This document shows, one piece after another, positions 30,132-37,208 of a stretch of DNA of 64,000 bases (position 1 is the first letter of the stretch; the number at the start of each line of letters is the position of its first letter). This DNA comes from Flavobacterium sp. GTDB taxonomy: Bacteria > Bacteroidota > Bacteroidia > Flavobacteriales > Flavobacteriaceae. The notes beneath the pieces are model-generated. The model was given only the letters and a program-made list of their open reading frames with translations. It was not told where the DNA came from and did not search any database. The DNA lies in NCBI RefSeq assembly GCF_035195345.1, contig NZ_CP136574.1, positions 2,653,598-2,717,597 on the forward strand, read 5' to 3'. The position numbers were made by a program, and so were the translations under genes.

Positions 30132-30917
30132 TTATTTGATTTTAAACTTACCTATAGTTGCATCAAAAGTCAAATGTTCGTTATCAAATAACGTATTGAA
30201 AATCTCAGTTTGAATCAAATTACAAGGTTGGTTTTGAACTATTTGAGTTGGTGTAAATATAATCATTTCATCACTCATTTGAATCGCTAAATCGATGTCA
30301 TGTGTAGAATAAAGGATGGTTTTACCCGTTTCGTGTGTGAGTTTTTGCAACAATTTCAATAAAGTTGCTTTGTGCACTAAATCTAAATGGGTTGTAGGTT
30401 CGTCTAAAATAATTACGGAAGTGTCTTGTGCCAAAGCGCGTGCGATCAAAGCAATTTGCAACTGACCATCACTAATTTCGTCTTGTTTTTTATGAATTAA
30501 ATGTTGGATTTCTGTTAATGTAATCGCTTCTTCAATTTTAGTTTTGTCTTCTTCAGATAAAGTGCCTAACCAATTGGTGTAAGGTTGTCTACCTAAAGCG
30601 ATGATTTCGTATACGGTTAAATTACTTGGTGGCAATTTTTCAGTTAATACGATGCTTAATTCTTGTGCTAAATCAAGTGGTTTGTAACTTTGAAGCGATT
30701 TATGGAGTAAAGAAACTTCGCCTTGTAAAGGAGGAATAATTCCTGTTAATGTTTTTAATAAAGTAGATTTCCCAATTCCGTTTTCACCTATTAAAGCAAT
30801 TAATTTGCCTTTTTCTAAACCAAGATTGATGTTTTGAGCAATAGTAATTGTTTCCGATTTGGTTTTGTAGCCAATCGAAAGGTTTTTGGTTTGTATGGTG
30901 AAATTTTGTTGGGTCAT
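30132..30917 (-). CDS. Cobalamin/Fe-siderophore ABC transporter ATPase (BtuD/FecE-like)
   Basis: Walker A GENGIGKST, ISDGQ signature, LDEPT; ATG at 30917 follows a TAnnTTTG box at 30927-30934. Confidence 0.88.
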   Translation of the reverse strand: MTQQNFTIQTKNLSIGYKTKSETITIAQNINLGLEKGKLIALIGENGIGKSTLLKTLTGIIPPLQGEVSLLHKSLQSYKPLDLAQELSIVLTEKLPPSNLTVYEIIALGRQPYTNWLGTLSEEDKTKIEEAITLTEIQHLIHKKQDEISDGQLQIALIARALAQDTSVIILDEPTTHLDLVHKATLLKLLQKLTHETGKTILYSTHDIDLAIQMSDEMIIFTPTQIVQNQPCNLIQTEIFNTLFDNEHLTFDATIGKFKIK

Positions 30918-30929
30918 TATGAAATACAA

Positions 30930-31118
30930 AAATAGGTTTTACCACATAGAAACATAGTTTTTTTTAGAGAGTTTTATTTAGAAACTAAAGTTTTGTATAG
31001 TTTTATTCTTTTTCAAACTTTTGAAATAGGTTTTACCACATAGAAACATTGATTTTTTTAAGAGTTTTATCTAGAAACTAAAGTTTTGTATAGTTTTATT
31101 CTTTTTCTAATTTTTTAA
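30930..31118. repeat. Two diverged tandem copies (94-bp period) carrying an ACCACATAGAAACAT arm and the 3' end of the GxxExxY gene
   Basis: AAATAGGTTTTACCACATAGAAACAT...AGAAACTAAAGTTTTGTATAGTTTTATTCTTTTTC starts at both 30930 and 31024. Confidence 0.9.
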
Positions 31119-31506
31119 AATATTCGTTTACAAAAGTTTTTTGACCTTCTCGGAATATATTGAAACAATTAAAGTTAATTATAATTCCTTTTGGGACTTT
31201 TAATAAGTTCATATAATTTAAAACTTGAGCATCATGAATTGGTTTTATTTCAGAAACAGACTTTAACTCGACTATTAAGCAATTTTCAACGAATAAATCA
31301 CAACGGAATTCAATATCAAGTTCTTTTCCTTTATAAACTACAGGAACTTTAAATTCGGAAACAAAATTTATATTTCTATTGGTTAATTCCTCTATAATAC
31401 ATTGTTGATAAACACTTTCTAATAATCCACTTCCCATGTTTTTATGTACTTCAATAGCCGCTCCAATAACTTTAAATGTGAGTTCGTCTAAATATTTCTG
31501 TGTCAT
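31096..31506 (-). CDS. GxxExxY protein (PD-(D/E)XK nuclease-like fold)
   Basis: GLLESVY motif; RCDLFVENCLIVELKS; AQVLNYM; GIIINF; 136 aa. Confidence 0.93.
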   Translation of the reverse strand: MTQKYLDELTFKVIGAAIEVHKNMGSGLLESVYQQCIIEELTNRNINFVSEFKVPVVYKGKELDIEFRCDLFVENCLIVELKSVSEIKPIHDAQVLNYMNLLKVPKGIIINFNCFNIFREGQKTFVNEYFKKLEKE

Positions 31507-31520
31507 ATTTTTTTTAATTT

Positions 31521-31624
31521 ACCACATTGAAACATAGATTAAAATTATTTCATTTACTCTATCTGTAAAAACAAGTTTTCTATAATAATCTCAACATAAA
31601 ATATACCTATGTATCTATGTGGTT
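31521..31624. repeat. Inverted-repeat element upstream of GxxExxY
   Basis: ACCACATTGAAACATAG (31521-31537) and CTATGTATCTATGTGGTT (31607-31624) are near-perfect inverted arms. Confidence 0.85.
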
Positions 31625-31643
31625 TTATTTTTTTTGTTTTAAT

Positions 31644-32669
31644 TTAAAAACGTTTCTTTCTAACTAATAACCAAATCACCACAGGTGCTCCAATTACTGA
31701 TGTTATTGCGTTTATTGGTAATGTAATATCATTTCCTGGAACTTGAGCAATCGTATCGCAACACAACATAACAATCGCACCAAGCAGAAGCGTACTCCAA
31801 AACAACACAAAATGATTACTCGTTTGAAACAACAATTTCGCCATATGTGGAACCGCCAACCCAATAAAAGCAATCGGACCTGCAAATGCGGTGATGCTTC
31901 CTGCTAAAATACTGGTTGCTATAATAATTAAAAAACGGGTTTTTTTATAGTTGATTCCTATACTTTGAGCGTATTTTTCTCCTAAAAGTAATGCGTTTAA
32001 AGGTTTTATAACCATAAAGCTAATAACTATTCCAATGAAAACAAAAACAGATAAAAGTGAAATTTCATTCCAAGATAAATTTGAAATACTTCCCATCGAC
32101 CAAAAAGTGAATTTCTGTAATTTTTCAGCCGAAGTAAAATACGACAAAACTGAAACAATCGCGCTGGTAAAACTTCCAAACATTAATCCTACAATTAAAA
32201 TGGCCATGGTGTCTTTCAGCTTTTGTGAAATTATTAAAACGGCCATAAAAACTAAAAAGCTACCTAAACTTGATGCTAAAATCAATCCGTAATTCGATAA
32301 AAAGAAAGTAGAAAGAAAAGTAGGTAAAAAGCCTGTTCCTAAAATGATAAAAGCCACTCCTAAACTTGCTCCAGAACTCAATCCTAAAACATAAGGTCCA
32401 GCTAATGGATTTCTAAACAACGTTTGCATTAATAAACCACTCATTGAAAGTCCAATTCCAACTAAAATAGCTGTTATGGCTTTTGGAAAGCGGAAATTCC
32501 ACAGAATAATTTCCCAACTTTTCTTACTCATTTCTTGCGATAAAAGTCCGTTAACCACTTCTTTCAAAGGAATAGAAACGGAACCTAAGCTAATATTAAC
32601 CAAAAACAAAAACACCATTGCTACAAGCAAGAGTATAAAAAGAAGGTTTTGTTTTTTGGTTAATGGCAT
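31644..32669 (-). CDS. FecCD/BtuC-family ABC permease
   Basis: LMQTLFRNPLAGPYVLGLSSGA, LLLGEKYAQSIG, IAFIGLAVPH. Confidence 0.92.
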   Translation of the reverse strand: MPLTKKQNLLFILLLVAMVFLFLVNISLGSVSIPLKEVVNGLLSQEMSKKSWEIILWNFRFPKAITAILVGIGLSMSGLLMQTLFRNPLAGPYVLGLSSGASLGVAFIILGTGFLPTFLSTFFLSNYGLILASSLGSFLVFMAVLIISQKLKDTMAILIVGLMFGSFTSAIVSVLSYFTSAEKLQKFTFWSMGSISNLSWNEISLLSVFVFIGIVISFMVIKPLNALLLGEKYAQSIGINYKKTRFLIIIATSILAGSITAFAGPIAFIGLAVPHMAKLLFQTSNHFVLFWSTLLLGAIVMLCCDTIAQVPGNDITLPINAITSVIGAPVVIWLLVRKKRF

Positions 32670-32708
32670 GCGCTGAATTTTTGGCTAAATTACGTTTTTT
32701 GGGATTTT

Positions 32709-32840
32709 AAACACATAGGCACATAGAAAAAATTAAAGTAAATTACTGTTAAAGCTATTTCATTACCACATAGCTATGTTGACTATGTAAAGTGAAACGC
32801 CTAAAATCGACATAAAGTTGAGCTATGTGACTATGTGTTT
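32709..32840. repeat. ~132-bp REP/MITE-like element, copy 1
   Basis: Arms AAACACATAGGCACATAG and CTATGTGACTATGTGTTT (17/18 inverted match); internal CACATAGCTATGTTGACTATGT. Confidence 0.85.
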
Positions 32841-32863
32841 CAATTTGAAGCTAGGTTTCAATT

Positions 32864-33994
32864 TTACTTTAACTTTTCAAAAAAGAACAATTCATGATTT
32901 GGCAACACTTCAGGGTGTAAAATCTTTACAATATCTTTTAAAACTAAATCAGGTCTATTTTGCGCTAATTCGTAATAAATTACGCCACCTGTTTTGCCTT
33001 TTTTAGTACTAAACGAATACACTTTTTTGTTCTTAACTGCTTTGAAATGAATGTAATTTGGGTTGTTATCTAAAATTTCTTGTATCGAAGTAAATTGTCC
33101 TGGACCAATCCAAAAATCAGCGTCTTTTGCTTTGTCTAAAACACTTTCGAAGGACAAAGCTAAACTTCCGGTTCCTTTAGAATCTTTCCACAAATAATTT
33201 CCGTTGCCTTCTTTTAAGAAATAGGCTGCCCAACTATCGCCTTGCGGTAAAAACCATTGGTCTTCGTAAATAGCTCCTGCAAAAATCTTAGGTTGGGTTT
33301 TAGTGTTTTTAGCTAATGCTATTACCGAATTGTATTCTTTCTCAATCGAATTAAAGATTTCTGTCGCCTTTTTGTCTAAATCATATAAAGCACCAAAAAA
33401 CTTAATCCATTCGGCTTTTCCCAAAGGTGTTTTTTCGGTCCAATCGCCGTTAAAGATTATTTTCTGACTGTTTTTTTCTAAGTTTTTGTAGGTTTTTAAA
33501 TCGCCATCCACACTAAATCCTACGATTACATCAGGTTGAATGTCTAAAATAACTTCTGTATTTAATCCTTGATTGGAACCTAAATCCCTCACTTTTCCAG
33601 CATCGATTATTGCTCTTGTTTTTTCAGAAGAAATATATTGTGTGGTTGGAAAACCAATTAAAGTATTTTCTACTCCTAATGATTCTAAAGCTGGAATATG
33701 AGTTGTTGAAGTAACGATTACTTTTTTAATTGGAACTTCAATCGAAGTAAATTGTTGTAAGCTATCTGGAATTTGAACACCTTTTTTATGAAGTATATAT
33801 GTATAATCATCTTTAGCTTCAGGATAAGCGTTAGAAACTTTTACAACCGAAAAGCCATCGTATTTTTCAATAGAAAATCCTTCCGCATGTTGAATATAGT
33901 TTTGGACTGAATTAGAAAGACTTGTTGAGTTTTCCGATTCTTTACATTGGATAAATCCTAAAAATAAAACAACTAAAAAGATATAATGGCGCAT
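32864..33994 (-). CDS. Cobalamin/iron ABC substrate-binding lipoprotein (BtuF-like)
   Basis: Lipobox FIQC; TSTTH, EKTPLGKAEWIK, PDLVLKD; TACTTTTG box at 34009-34016 on the minus strand. Confidence 0.88.
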   Translation of the reverse strand: MRHYIFLVVLFLGFIQCKESENSTSLSNSVQNYIQHAEGFSIEKYDGFSVVKVSNAYPEAKDDYTYILHKKGVQIPDSLQQFTSIEVPIKKVIVTSTTHIPALESLGVENTLIGFPTTQYISSEKTRAIIDAGKVRDLGSNQGLNTEVILDIQPDVIVGFSVDGDLKTYKNLEKNSQKIIFNGDWTEKTPLGKAEWIKFFGALYDLDKKATEIFNSIEKEYNSVIALAKNTKTQPKIFAGAIYEDQWFLPQGDSWAAYFLKEGNGNYLWKDSKGTGSLALSFESVLDKAKDADFWIGPGQFTSIQEILDNNPNYIHFKAVKNKKVYSFSTKKGKTGGVIYYELAQNRPDLVLKDIVKILHPEVLPNHELFFFEKLK

Positions 33995-34124
33995 GAAAAT
34001 GTTTTTTGCAAAAGTAGTTTTTTATTTTCTGCTCGCAAAGATGCAAAGGTTTTTTCATGTAACTTTGTGTAACAAATAAGACAGAAAGAAACTAATAAAA
34101 CCACTAAATTTGTCATAAAAAAAC

Positions 34125-34232
34125 ATGAGAACAGATTCAAATGCTTTCCTTTATGCAGTAGCAACAATTATTTTAGCACATTTTGTAATTGGCTTTATTT
34201 GGTTGTGGCGTAAGATGAATAAGAAGAAGTAA
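34125..34232 (+). CDS. Uncalled 35-aa single-pass membrane protein
   Basis: MRTDSNAFLYAVATIILAHFVIGFIWLWRKMNKKK*; hydrophobic core, basic tail, A-rich leader and upstream TAnnTTTG boxes (34060, 34105). Confidence 0.6.
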   Translation: MRTDSNAFLYAVATIILAHFVIGFIWLWRKMNKKK

Positions 34233-34233
34233 G

Positions 34234-34776
34234 TTACAATTTAAAATTTATTGGAATAGCGTAAATAACTTTAACAATTTTACCTCTTTGTGTTGCAGGA
34301 ATAAAATTGGGTAATAAATTAATTATTCTTTTTGCTTCTGCTTCAAAAAGTATTCCATATTCATTTCTTAAGTTCGATTTTACTCTTTCAACTGATATTT
34401 TTCCGTCTTTTTCAATTTCAAATGTAACGAAAACTCGAGCTTCAATTTTATTTTCTTTCGCTTCTTCAGGATATTTTAAATGTTTTTCAATATGTTTTTT
34501 AATTTCTTCTTGAAAACATTCTCTTTGCAAGTTTTTTTCAATTTTTTCGCATGAACCAAAAAGCGGAACTTGTTCAACTACTGCAAAAGGGATTGCCGTA
34601 TTTTCAAACTCTAAATCTCTAACTGTATCTGCTTCTTGGACTAAAACATTTTGAGGATCTGAAACTTTAACTTCACGCACTTCAATTTTTTGAGCTTGTG
34701 TAAATGTAAAACTAAAGATGAACAAACTTAAAACTAAAATTCTCATTTTGAATTTATTTAAAAATATGAAATTCAA
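34234..34776 (-). CDS. TonB C-terminal-domain protein
   Basis: VVEQVPLF, LKYPEEAKENKIEARVFVTFEIEKDG, IPATQRGK, YAIPINFKL. Confidence 0.85.
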   Translation of the reverse strand: MNFIFLNKFKMRILVLSLFIFSFTFTQAQKIEVREVKVSDPQNVLVQEADTVRDLEFENTAIPFAVVEQVPLFGSCEKIEKNLQRECFQEEIKKHIEKHLKYPEEAKENKIEARVFVTFEIEKDGKISVERVKSNLRNEYGILFEAEAKRIINLLPNFIPATQRGKIVKVIYAIPINFKL

Positions 34777-34813
34777 AGATATAAATTAAGATTGTAAACT
34801 TTTAAAAAATACT

Positions 34814-34821
34814 TACCTTTG
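34814..34821 (+). promoter_or_regulatory. Bacteroidota -7 promoter box for the riboswitch-btuB transcript
   Basis: TACCTTTG immediately 5' of the riboswitch. Confidence 0.65.
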
Positions 34822-34829
34822 CCCTCGAA

Positions 34830-35003
34830 TTTTGGTTGTTGTTTCTGAATTTTTCAAAACAACATTAAAAGGGAATTAGGTGTAATACCTAAGCTGTACC
34901 CGCAACTGTAAGCTATTAAGCTTGTTATTATCTACAATACCATTGTTCGCCTTGGCGAATGAGAAGGTTGATAACAAGACGCAAGCCAGGAGACCTGCCA
35001 CAT
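34830..35003 (+). promoter_or_regulatory. Cobalamin riboswitch
   Basis: AAAAGGGAA-TTAGGTGTAATACCTAA-GCTGTACCCGCAACTGTAA...ACCATTG...GAGAAGG...B12 box AAGCCAGGAGACCTGCC, upstream of a TonB-dependent receptor. Confidence 0.95.
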
Positions 35004-35100
35004 TCATTGAGTAACAAACTTTCGGGAAAAAAAGTTTGAGTATGGGTAAATTCTGTGCTTTTCTCCCAAATTATTAATTATTGATTGAAGTGATTGGTTT

Positions 35101-35233
35101 AAACACATAGTCACATAGTGTTTAGTTTATTTTAAAGGCTGTTTTAGAAAATGATTTTTACACATAGCACTATGTTGTCTATGTTAAATGAAATGCCTTT
35201 TTATGTTCTATTTCATCTACGATTCTATGTGTT
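35101..35233. repeat. ~133-bp REP/MITE-like element, copy 2
   Basis: Left arm AAACACATAGTCACATAG; internal CACATAGCACTATGTTGTCTATGTTAAATGAAATGCCT; degenerate right arm CTACGATTCTATGTGTT. Confidence 0.8.
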
Positions 35234-35270
35234 GAAAAAATTATTTCAGCATGTTTTTATTAACCCTAAA

Positions 35271-37208
35271 ATGAACAAAAAGTTTATTGGCTTAAGTGTA
35301 TTTACACTAGCTACTGCTTTTGCGTATGCACAAGAAACAGATACGCTAAAGGTGACCAATCTTAAAGAAGTGGTCGTTTCGGACACTAAATTTGCGCAAA
35401 GCAAAGAAAAATCAGGTAAAATTATTGAAGTCATTACATCGCAAGACTTAGAAGCAAAAAAAGGTCAAAATTTGGCTAACGTTTTGAGTCAAGTGGCTGG
35501 AGTGGAAATCAACGGGAATCAATCGTTTGGTGGAAAAAATTTAGGCTATTACATTCGTGGTGGTCGTAATCGTCAAGTTGCGATTTACATTGATGGTGTT
35601 CCAGTAACAGATGCTTCAGGAATTAATTTGGAGTATGATTTACGTTTGATTCCAGTGGAACAAATCGAGAAAATTGAAGTAATGAAAGGCGCTTCAAGTA
35701 CGTTATACGGAACTGGAGCAGCAACTGGAGTTATCAATATTACGTTAAAAAAATCAGCAAAAAAAGAAATTTCAGGGAATGCGTACATGAATATGGGAAC
35801 GCAAAATACTTCGGAAACTTCAAAAACAAGTGCACAAGATTTCAATCAGGGTGTATCGCTTAACGGAACCATTAATAAAGTTTCGTACATGACCACTTTA
35901 AATAGTACGGAGACCAAAGGAATGTCGGAAGCAGCAGGAGAAAATTTTGAAGAAGATTCATTTTCAAGAGTAAATGTGTTACAGAAAATGGGTTTCAAGG
36001 CGAATGATCAATTAAGTTTTGAGTTTTTTGGAAATTACGACCGAATTAAAAATACGTTTGACAATTCGTTTGATGGTTTTATTGCAAATTCTGATGATTT
36101 GAACAACAATAGTTTTTCGGAACAATTTAGAATTGGTTTTTTGCCAAAATACAAATACAATAAAGGAGAATTTGCAATTAATGCAGGAGTATCTACTATA
36201 GATAGAACAATAAATATCTCAAATTCTTGGTCTGGAACAGTTGATACATACAACTATACTGGTAGAACGGCATCTATCGACGCTTTTAATAAATACAATT
36301 TCAGTAAACAAGTATATTTAGTGGTTGGCGCTCAATATCAATATTTCGATATGACGCAAAAAGACGCTTATACCGATGTAGCAAGAGAAGGAGCAAAGTT
36401 CAATTTATTAGATCCTTATGCAACTGTTGTGTTTAATTCTGAATTTGGTTTGAACATTAACGCTGGAGCTCGTTTCAATACACATAGTGAATACGGAAAT
36501 CAAGTAGTGTATAATTTCAATCCGAGTTATTCATTTGAGAACTTACCTTTGAAAGTTTTAGCTTCTTATAGCACAGCTTTCATCACGCCAAGTTTATATC
36601 AATTATATGGTCCTTATGGAAATTTAGATTTAACTCCAGAAGAAAATGCTACGGCAGAATTAGGTTTTGAATCGCAATTATTAGACAAGAAATTAACCAT
36701 TAATGCAGTTGGTTTTTATAGAGAAGAGGGAAATACGTTTGGATTTTACACCAATCCAGTAACTTTTGTATCAAACTATATTAATATTGACGCCACTTTC
36801 AATGCAAAAGGAGTAGAAGCAAGTATTCGATACAATTTATCTGAAAGATTTAATATCGGAGGAAACTATACTTTCACAGAAGTTGAAAAACAATTAAACC
36901 GTTTAATTCCCAAACACAAAGGAAATGTAGATTTGAATTACAAATTTAAAAGAGGAACATTTGGAATCAATTATCAATTTGTTGATAAAAGAAGTGATGC
37001 TTATTATGATTCGAATATTTGGGCAACACAAGCTGTTAATTTAGCAACTTATCAATTGGTTAATTCTAATATTTCATACGAGTTGCTACCAAATCGTTTG
37101 CAAATATTTGGAGCAGTAACTAATATTTTAAACGACGATTTTCAAGAAGTAATTGGTTATAATACCAGAGGAAGAAATTACAAATTAGGTTTGAATTTTC
37201 TGTTTTAG
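35271..37208 (+). CDS. btuB: TonB-dependent cobalamin receptor
   Basis: Plug motifs (LKEVVVS, IRGG, IYIDGVP, IEVMKGASSTLYG, GVINI), C-terminal F, under a cobalamin riboswitch; signal peptide starts at ATG 35271. Confidence 0.88.
   Translation: MNKKFIGLSVFTLATAFAYAQETDTLKVTNLKEVVVSDTKFAQSKEKSGKIIEVITSQDLEAKKGQNLANVLSQVAGVEINGNQSFGGKNLGYYIRGGRNRQVAIYIDGVPVTDASGINLEYDLRLIPVEQIEKIEVMKGASSTLYGTGAATGVINITLKKSAKKEISGNAYMNMGTQNTSETSKTSAQDFNQGVSLNGTINKVSYMTTLNSTETKGMSEAAGENFEEDSFSRVNVLQKMGFKANDQLSFEFFGNYDRIKNTFDNSFDGFIANSDDLNNNSFSEQFRIGFLPKYKYNKGEFAINAGVSTIDRTINISNSWSGTVDTYNYTGRTASIDAFNKYNFSKQVYLVVGAQYQYFDMTQKDAYTDVAREGAKFNLLDPYATVVFNSEFGLNINAGARFNTHSEYGNQVVYNFNPSYSFENLPLKVLASYSTAFITPSLYQLYGPYGNLDLTPEENATAELGFESQLLDKKLTINAVGFYREEGNTFGFYTNPVTFVSNYINIDATFNAKGVEASIRYNLSERFNIGGNYTFTEVEKQLNRLIPKHKGNVDLNYKFKRGTFGINYQFVDKRSDAYYDSNIWATQAVNLATYQLVNSNISYELLPNRLQIFGAVTNILNDDFQEVIGYNTRGRNYKLGLNFLF

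Follow-up and report, generated by a model that had tools for sequence, protein, structure and literature searches.

Gene-less hairpin elements at the B12 uptake locus of a Flavobacterium: probable selfish repeats related to GxxExxY cassettes

In the genome of Flavobacterium sp. GCF_035195345.1, the 64,000 nucleotides between positions 2,653,598 and 2,717,597 of contig NZ_CP136574.1 (forward strand; this whole stretch is hereafter the window) contain a locus for B12 uptake, in which btuF and btuC lie on the minus strand and btuB, preceded by a cobalamin riboswitch, on the plus strand. Two short elements interrupt this locus, one (el1) between btuF and btuC, the other (el2) in the btuB leader, past the riboswitch aptamer and before the start codon at 35274. 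A preliminary description of the sequence had reported a gene-less element of about 132 bp at 32709-32840 and a 133-bp sibling at 35101-35233, and both are indeed found there. We consider it fairly probable that el1 and el2 belong, as gene-less copies, to a selfish family of hairpin repeats related to cassettes that carry a GxxExxY gene, and that they have been drifting ever since their intergenic insertion at the btu locus. The family as we would define it is restricted to the genus and hairpin-forming, with a core of about 135 bp and an inserted segment of about 150-170 bp; one copy landed in a gene pair that formerly abutted and the other in a riboswitch leader. The features of the locus, in window positions, are these:

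31644-32669, minus strand: btuC permease gene
32864-33994, minus strand: btuF-like binding protein gene
34816-35016, plus strand: cobalamin riboswitch aptamer (RF00174, 101.8 bits)
start near 35274, plus strand: btuB, TonB-dependent B12 receptor, its start placed by alignment with relatives
32709-32840, box on the plus strand: el1 core, 132 bp arm to arm, antisense to the btuFC mRNA
32709-32726, plus strand: el1 left arm, AAACACATAGGCACATAG, two heptads with an 8-bp period
32767-32780, plus strand: el1 central palindrome, CACATAG·CTATGTTG, followed by an ACTATGT heptad to 32788
32790-32802, plus strand: el1 asymmetric conserved box, AAGTGAAACGCCT
32823-32840, minus strand: el1 right arm, CTATGTGACTATGTGTTT as read on the plus strand
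32695-32863: el1 full inserted segment, about 169 bp, from the btuF stop codon to the btuC leader, comprising el1 and short outer modules
35101-35233, box on the plus strand: el2 core, 133 bp, sense in the btuB leader
35101-35118: el2 left arm, AAACACATAGTCACATAG
35161-35177, plus strand: el2 centre, CACATAG-ca-CTATGTTG, followed by a TCTATGT heptad (repeat family D10)
35186-35198, plus strand: el2 box, AAATGAAATGCCT
35217-35233: el2 right arm, degraded, CTACGATTCTATGTGTT
about 35084-35250: el2 full inserted segment, about 167 bp, with outer pairing TGAAGTGATTGG... / ...AAAAAATTATTTCA

Both copies are assembled from the same parts, the arms, internal block and single asymmetric box of the preliminary description being directly legible in each: 18-bp inverted ends with two CACATAG heptads apiece, a central CACATAG·CTATGT palindrome and one box, AA(G/A)TGAAA(C/T)GCCT. 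The arms of el1 are complementary at 17 of 18 positions, and CACATAGNCACATAG, with at most two mismatches allowed, is matched 7 times in the window, where 0.18 matches would be expected by chance. The two copies share one orientation despite their opposed host genes, as had been remarked, the box being on the plus strand in both. Among open reading frames (ORFs) of at least 60 amino acids, the sole one to overlap an element, 35151-37208, is a 5'-extended call of btuB. The lengths of 132 and 133 bp hold for the core from arm to arm, but the inserted segments, as judged from the empty sites of relatives and from extended pairing of the flanks, are longer. In many copies (G263, G300, G012; other genomes of the comparison are cited by such handles) a further conserved outer module, ...CGTTGGGTGTAATTAATTTT·AACACATAG, lies some 15-25 nt beyond the box-proximal arm, its counterpart in el1 (32695-32708) being TTTTTTGGGATTTT·AAAC, and on the strength of this module the mobile unit may measure about 160-170 bp rather than 135 bp. 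Beside the right arm of el1 there is also an 18-bp direct duplication, GTTTCAATTTGAAGCTAG, at 32841-32858, which is not in G226; that species has the el1-type insert minus the 18 bp, with the arm 5-9 nt from the btuF stop codon.

The state of the orthologous sites in related species is the principal evidence for insertion. In G022, G009, G013 and G014 the el1 site is empty and the btuF stop codon abuts the btuC start, the junction in G022 reading ...AAAATAA·CGTAATTTAGCC...ATG with no insert where 169 extra bases are found here. Likewise, the el2 site is empty in G018, G014, G006, G013 and G009, and about 30 nt separate ...GCTTTTCTCCC, the 3' end of the riboswitch, from the btuB start codon in G014, G006 and G018, as against about 200 nt here. 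Both elements are present in place in G226, a closer species, and since the G022-like sites are empty and those of G226 filled, insertion is dated to the interval between the divergence from G022-like relatives and the later one from G226. The joined flanks of 14 other copies, used as queries, identified nine empty, three filled and two uninformative sites in G022; because G018, a more distant species, is empty at all three of the filled ones, these represent gains, the filled state being derived. Most of the other copies are accordingly polymorphic between species, and el1 and el2, themselves absent from orthologous sites in relatives, are insertions.

A further observation concerns what else occupies such sites. 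At the btuF-btuC junction of G023 (L006) there is another insert, of about 90 bp, with a GCTGAATTTATTTCAGC hairpin, and the 'empty' sites of G022 often carry other short repeats, for example ACTAATTACTTTTTACTAAT (L080 and L084, at the sites of copies 332215 and 1032714). That the same intergenic spots are taken by different repeat families suggests either insertion hot spots or the replacement of one element by another.

Since their insertion the two copies have drifted about as fast as neutral DNA, and at least as fast as the DNA on either side. Identity to G226 is 80.5% in el1 and 82-92% in its flanks, 93.2% in el2 and 97.5-100% in its flanks, and arm heptads are mutated in both copies and in both lineages, this genome and G226. 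Because their identity is at or below that of the flanks and the heptads are themselves mutated, el1 and el2 behave as unconstrained DNA at these loci, and we would accordingly ascribe to them no host function at these two sites. As a separate matter, identity to G226 shifts within 2.5 kb, from 80-92% around el1 (32560-33000) to 97.5-100% around el2 and the riboswitch (34980-35330), a change sharp enough to suggest a recombination boundary inside the btu locus.

The btu copies are members of a dispersed family. In this genome ACATAGnnACATAG has 22 exact matches as against 1 in a reversed-genome control, and the double-heptad arm, with one mismatch allowed, 41 as against 7. When the genome was searched with el1 and el2 the recurrent module was found to be a unit of about 70 bp (TTTAAACACATAG-nn-ACATAG, about 20 nt, AGGCGTTTCACTT-n-CATAG-nnnn-CATAG), of which an iterated nhmmer profile recovers 39, every one of them intergenic. 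These occur in both orientations, 12 running in the direction of transcription and 8 opposite to it where the flanking genes are co-directional, and the genes that adjoin them are functionally unrelated. Three elements, el1, el2 and C1:1032714-1032857, consist of two such units head to head, an arrangement that creates the outer arms and the central palindrome, and this inverted-dimer symmetry is seen mainly in copies of this genome. For the single unit RNAalifold, applied to 20 examples on both strands, predicts 0 pairs; the unit is a sequence module with no hairpin of its own.

Several other arrangements of the same words occur in the genome. The elements at C1:544424-544677 and C1:730462-730600 are chimeric, with a CATATAAG-type left arm (AAACATATAAGTCATATAAG) and a CACATAG-type right unit with a AAGTGAAACG box, from which it would appear that the arm families recombine or interconvert via few substitutions. 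Tandem arrays with units of about 107-110 bp (C1:44223-45108, 101899-102158 and 2738441-2740571) contain the CTATG-AAAGTG(A/T)AACGCC module, with the short spacer replaced by CTCTGTGTAGCTCTCTCAACACAATCCACTTC...CCGTGTAGCTCTGTGTAAAAA, and look like a related, longer, head-to-tail repeat family. Seven single units (C1:372129, 378821, 407733, 437577, 733429, 1052090 and 1223611) lie directly upstream of a called gene start with the arm end (..CTATGTGTTTAAAA) towards the gene, six of them ending 11-18 nt before the start codon and that at 733429 being overlapped by 9 nt of a crude ORF call; such a placement might come from an affinity for the A-rich stretches that precede start codons in Bacteroidetes, or from an influence on expression.

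Beyond this genome, the exact arm (17 specified bases) was sought in 201 species of the genus and, with a single genome per genus, in 150 other genera of the family. Of the 201 species 63 contain it, and of the 150 other genera none, with between 1 and 171 arms per genome where it occurs, typically 50-116 in large genomes of 5-6 Mb, compared with about 0 for a reversed-pattern control, and with a spacing between plus and minus arms of about 117-120 bp. The hairpin repeat is genus-specific and reaches about 85 copies per genome, the form of about 135 bp being the standard copy in the larger genomes; arm variants such as ACCACATAG occur beside the exact pattern, and the family consensus has no blastn match in phage or plasmid collections. 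This distribution refutes the notion that the CACATAG repeats are operators for a regulator of a B12 uptake regulon, to which we attach a practically negligible probability: several CACATAG-arm loci do cluster in one B12 uptake locus, but some 39 units stand beside unrelated genes genome-wide, the sites are missing from most relatives' btu loci, and 138 of the 201 species lack the arm altogether. Similarly, the preliminary description had named a locus-specific regulator site as the alternative to be favoured if only these copies existed and were conserved in place, whereas the genome holds 39 units and the btu copies are missing in relatives.

The family is conserved in blocks. In alignments of 22 and of 16 copies, drawn from five genomes, the ends are near-invariant (TTTAAACACATAGAAACATAG and CTATGTTTCTATGTGTTAAAA), the centre CACATAG·CTATGTG is invariant and the box AAGTGAAACGCCTTTT is conserved, several of its columns being invariant over copies from all five genomes, while the spacers vary. 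Of 16 arm pairs predicted, nine are preserved throughout the 22 aligned copies and the remaining seven in 16-22 of them. Among 19 copies from other species, 18 have beside the centre a palindrome of 12-18 nt centred on CTAG (NNNN-CTAG-NNNN), which exists in 16 versions whose halves change together (for example GAAAC/GTTTC, AAAGC/GCTTT and AATGAC/GTCATT); el2 has a weak version of it and el1 has none.

Folding predictions are in accord with a hairpin-forming family. As modelled, el1 folds into a closed hairpin on either strand (plus, -35.4 kcal/mol, z -4.5; minus, -35.8 kcal/mol, z -4.1), its arms pair in both the minimum-free-energy and the centroid folds within the mRNA context, and in the fold of el2 in context the pairing extends about 12 nt past the arms. 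Both elements are thus predicted to be self-contained hairpins, whether alone or within the mRNA, and the nested hairpins envisaged earlier are borne out, with outer arms that pair and a palindromic centre. The arms are nearly invariant, so that covariation in the outer stem carries no information for or against pairing. The btuB leader (35017-35273), which is split by el2, measures about 200 nt in G226 as well, and a closed stem may keep the leader flanks of el2 adjacent in the RNA. More generally, such an insert would be tolerated in transcribed DNA since its arms close it into a stem and bring the flanks together in the RNA.

Searches for regulatory signals yielded nothing at the elements. 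At the gathering threshold Rfam returns the cobalamin riboswitch alone, and with E-values up to 10 over 30800-35400 nothing on the elements; a terminator scan finds none at them; and σ70-type promoter-like matches show no excess over shuffled sequences. Checked by eye against the Bacteroidetes promoter (-33 TTTG, -7 TAnnTTTG), the arms match at best 7 of 8 positions, with no -33 partner. An analogy with integron attC sites was dropped, because the R and L boxes of attC are oppositely oriented and the arms here are direct heptad pairs, no integrase search having been made.

A stable, self-contained hairpin in an operon and in a 5' leader could in principle be a domesticated cis-acting RNA or DNA structure, such as an RNase III site, an mRNA-stabilising hairpin or a cistron decoupler, by comparison with the roles proposed for repetitive extragenic palindromic (REP) sequences and the bacterial interspersed mosaic elements (BIMEs). 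The near-invariance of arms, centre and box over divergent copies and species with variable spacers would suit such a role, as would the compensatory changes in the small CTAG-centred palindrome and the monomer units placed 11-18 nt upstream of start codons with the arm towards the gene. Against this stand the mixed orientation relative to transcription, the lack of any predicted terminator, the unrelated functions of the neighbouring genes, the absence of el1 and el2 from most relatives with otherwise intact btu loci, and a rate of change in these copies, mutating arm heptads included, that equals or exceeds that of the flanks. We therefore think a domesticated structure very unlikely, and return to selfish elements and to the genes with which they are associated.

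The preliminary description was right about the two copies that it named, but the window contains further ones, at 31518-31626 and 30930-31119, and these lie on either side of a gene. The relevant features here and at a second locus of the genome are:

30930-31626: gene-bearing cassette of the window, CACATAG arms around a GxxExxY gene
31096-31506, minus strand: GxxExxY / PDDEXK_3 nuclease-fold gene with arms of the same kind around it (TIGR04256, 2e-40; PF13366, 2e-39)
31518-31626: a further gene-less member of the superfamily, the third, ACCACATTGAAACATAG ... CTATGTATCTATGTGGT, in the gap from the btuC stop to the GxxExxY start
30930-31119: a tandem pair of 94-bp units with one arm each, ACCACATAGAAACATAG..., downstream of the GxxExxY gene (repeat families D1 and D2)
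C1:2252161-2252774: second CACATAG-armed cassette, with left arm, ORF, CTATG..AGTGAAACGAC.., right arm
C1:2252185-2252589: GxxExxY gene of the second cassette

The genome has five GxxExxY genes (TIGR04256, PF13366 PDDEXK_3), two of which are bounded by CACATAG arms with the 8-bp period that the preliminary description had recognised as common to el1, el2 and the GxxExxY arms; these two are the only ORFs in the genome so bounded. The remaining three have a like architecture with other heptads (CGCAAAG, CATATAAG). In the translation of the window gene the D...ExK motif is legible as RCDLFVEN..IVELK, and no relative of solved structure is detectable by sequence. Arms frame a GxxExxY/PDDEXK_3 gene not only in the window and at C1:2252161-2252774 but also in cassettes of G012, G001 and G336, the last being a compact cassette of 560 bp. 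All five genes for four-helix-bundle proteins (TIGR02436, '23S IVS protein'; C1:641045-641365, 426615-426935, 1639781-1640092, 1694958-1695266 and 1391394-1391711) likewise lie between inverted arrays of short phased repeats, with a word peculiar to each gene (for example GGGATTAGGG / CCCTAATCCC and GATGGATG / CATCCATC), and because these genes are framed alike the architecture of heptad-arm cassettes is not limited to GxxExxY.

The fullest cassettes, those in the btu operons of G012 and G001, probably occupy one orthologous locus and reveal how the gene-bearing and gene-less forms may be related. From the left they comprise the L-arm, a variable stretch, a small palindrome, CACATAG·CT(A/T)TTGA and the ORF, and then CAC(A/T)A(A/C)G·TCTATGT, the AAGTGAAACGCC box and the R-arm, the gene module being flanked by degenerate central palindromes with the halves of the element on either side. 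The gene-less element can be read as such a cassette collapsed at the repeat or, equally, the cassette as an element with a gene module added beside its centre.

Of the two parts of the label first proposed, REP/MITE, the second is supported. The elements are like MITEs (miniature inverted-repeat transposable elements) in being dispersed and polymorphic and in having gene-bearing relatives with the same ends, and they display the usual traits of that class, namely a non-coding length below about 300 bp, terminal inverted repeats, many dispersed copies and presence/absence polymorphism. They resemble bacterial MITEs such as Correia/NEMIS of Neisseria, RUP of Streptococcus pneumoniae and ERIC/IRU of enterobacteria in their small size, non-coding content, inverted ends and long hairpin, and also in their intergenic, often co-transcribed position, their tens to more than 100 copies per genome and their insertion polymorphism between related species. 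Unlike these, they have no resolvable target-site duplication and no known transposase-bearing parent, the sole gene found between the ends being that of a PD-(D/E)XK nuclease-fold protein of about 135 amino acids, and their ends consist of 7-nt words in phase, met with again at the element's centre. The REP part falls, since the heptads are AT-rich and a search of the complete genome found no match to the Y1/RAYT transposase (PF01797), the controls for which were positive in 6 of 14 known genomes; a REP/RAYT identity was on this account ruled out.

The ends of the gene-less elements also frame GxxExxY genes, and GxxExxY is no demonstrated transposase. One may therefore ask whether these are classical MITEs of a conventional insertion sequence (with a DDE or other transposase) residing elsewhere in the genus, GxxExxY being unrelated cargo. 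Terminal inverted repeats, small size, copy number and insertion polymorphism are all as expected for such elements, and there are arm-rich genomes without a close GxxExxY gene. Nevertheless, no ORF in this genome other than GxxExxY is bounded by the arms; an arm-to-arm interval inspected in G191 spans 2.75 kb with ordinary genes inside; no target-site duplication can be resolved; and the phage and plasmid collections contain no match. Moreover, phased-heptad ends with different heptads also frame unrelated GxxExxY and four-helix-bundle genes, which ties the architecture to small genes. A conventional MITE seems to us highly improbable.

How then might gene-less copies spread? We tentatively propose that they could be mobilised in trans by the GxxExxY nuclease, which would read the heptads. 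The statistical link between the two is only moderate: a close homologue of the window GxxExxY (E <= 1e-43) is present in 19 of 30 arm-rich species (at least 10 arms) and in 40 of the 171 others among the 201 species (odds ratio 5.7, Fisher's p = 4e-5, uncorrected for phylogeny or genome size). A survey of the PD-(D/E)XK superfamily from 2012 gives the function of GxxExxY/PDDEXK_3 as 'Unknown' (PMC3424549). The hairpin repeat family itself is apparently undescribed: our literature search found no description of it or of GxxExxY mobility, the nearest item being a generic automated MITE catalogue of Bacteroidota (bioRxiv 10.1101/2024.01.18.576219).

A bolder proposal, which we judge unlikely, is that GxxExxY/PDDEXK_3 proteins are sequence-specific nucleases which, with heptad-armed hairpins, constitute a hitherto overlooked class of minimal mobile element of about 0.5 kb with a single protein of about 135 amino acids. 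The enzyme would in this lineage read CACATAG words, and the 14-bp CACATAG·CTATGTG (CACATAGCTATGTG) at the centre of gene-less copies such as el1 and el2 would serve it for cleavage or entry. Gene modules would pass from one gene-less copy to another, the hairpins reaching new intergenic sites via the repair or replication of nuclease-induced breaks.

The relationship could also be inverted, the hairpin being primary and propagated by itself or by the host, and GxxExxY a homing-type passenger that enters at or beside the central palindrome; copies without a gene would then be 'empty homing sites' and not deletion derivatives. Two 14-bp palindromes enclose the ORF module in the cassettes of G012 and G001, as if a palindromic target had been duplicated or split on entry, and the varying orientation and position of the ORF with respect to the AAGTGAAACGCC box suggests that it entered more than once. 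There are about 50 gene-less copies for each gene-bearing one, and they persist in genomes without a close gene. A 14-bp palindrome would, moreover, suit cutting by a homodimeric PD-(D/E)XK enzyme, palindromes of such kind being cut by homodimeric members of that superfamily (type II restriction enzymes and the I-Ssp6803I class). Yet dozens of intact palindromes coexist with an intact cognate gene (G001, 95 arms; G263, 171 arms), a situation hard to reconcile with an active nuclease, and the spread of the gene-less element to new intergenic sites is left unexplained. We regard the homing passenger as decidedly improbable.

Returning to el1 and el2 as inserted, drifting relatives of GxxExxY cassettes, several observations weigh against this explanation and should be set beside it. 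Six alignments of filled and empty sites (against G022) contain no readable target-site duplication, in agreement with the absence noted in the preliminary description; the flanks are A/T-rich and of low complexity, and what distinguishes filled from empty sites is the replacement of intergenic DNA by unrelated sequence, with no clean junction. Away from the conserved blocks, copies from a single genome share only about 60% identity, yet most keep perfect arms, as a purely neutral fossil would not; this is a hint that the arms are under selection, undergo gene conversion or are renewed from a template. Because arms, centre and box are near-perfect while the spacers diverge to this extent, pure decay is inadequate as an account of the family, whose conserved blocks point to ongoing copying from intact sources, to gene conversion or to selection on the blocks. 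Likewise, the orientation and position of the ORF relative to the box differ among cassettes, that of the window included, so that derivation from a single master element by deletion is too simple an account and more than one event is called for. As regards the nuclease, a close GxxExxY gene is missing from 11 of the 30 arm-rich genomes (G249, G302, G015 and G305 among them; arm counts in this group include 93, 52, 50 and 48), 10 genomes with such a gene have no exact arm, and in G012 and G191, with 93 and 64 arms, a stop codon interrupts the best cognate match. Since arm-rich genomes without an intact close gene exist, the gene is not needed for copies to persist; it may have been needed for their spread. 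Nuclease activity of GxxExxY proteins is not reported in the papers searched.

In the wider context of known systems, three comparisons are instructive. REP/REPIN sequences are reportedly associated with RAYT (Y1 transposase) genes, a connection drawn by Bertels and Rainey in 2011, and the present system is similar in its doublet-like palindromic repeat, in having many gene-less copies with one or few copies of a single small gene flanked by repeats, and in a vertical, lineage-specific distribution; it differs in that the associated gene has the PDDEXK_3 fold and the repeats are AT-rich phased heptads and not GC-rich REP hairpins. PD-(D/E)XK homing endonuclease genes, free-standing or intron-borne, are exemplified by I-Ssp6803I. 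As in those, a small nuclease gene lies in or beside putative palindromic recognition sites and gene-less alleles coexist with it; unlike those, the putative target here is a dispersed repeat rather than a conserved host gene, and many intact 'sites' occur beside intact genes.

The third comparison concerns the host transcript. The ORF-bearing intervening sequences (IVSs) of 23S rRNA in Coxiella and Leptospira, with their S23p/four-helix-bundle ORF (PMC4990558), are likewise small selfish inserts with inverted ends in a long stem, tolerated in a transcribed structured RNA, the stem holding an ORF of about 120 amino acids. Such sequences occupy helix 25 or 45 of 23S rRNA and are cut out by RNase III; el1 and el2 differ in lying between protein genes or in an mRNA leader and not in rRNA, in being ORF-less and in being related to another protein family. 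By analogy, their tolerance in the btu transcripts may be comparable to that of the rRNA intervening sequences.

For the annotation of these genomes the immediate implication is that inserts of this kind in operons and riboswitch leaders could pass for regulatory elements, and even if the copies are only passive fossils they would still be useful as a described repeat family for Flavobacterium. They illustrate, in addition, how a self-closing hairpin may be tolerated within a structured RNA. The picture that emerges is a compact one, of a genus-specific hairpin whose gene-bearing versions contain only a nuclease gene and whose 14-bp palindrome meets the gene module in two related cassettes. 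GxxExxY/PDDEXK_3 is a very large protein family with its function listed as 'Unknown', and the present locus makes the binding or cutting of heptads by such proteins a question for the bench.

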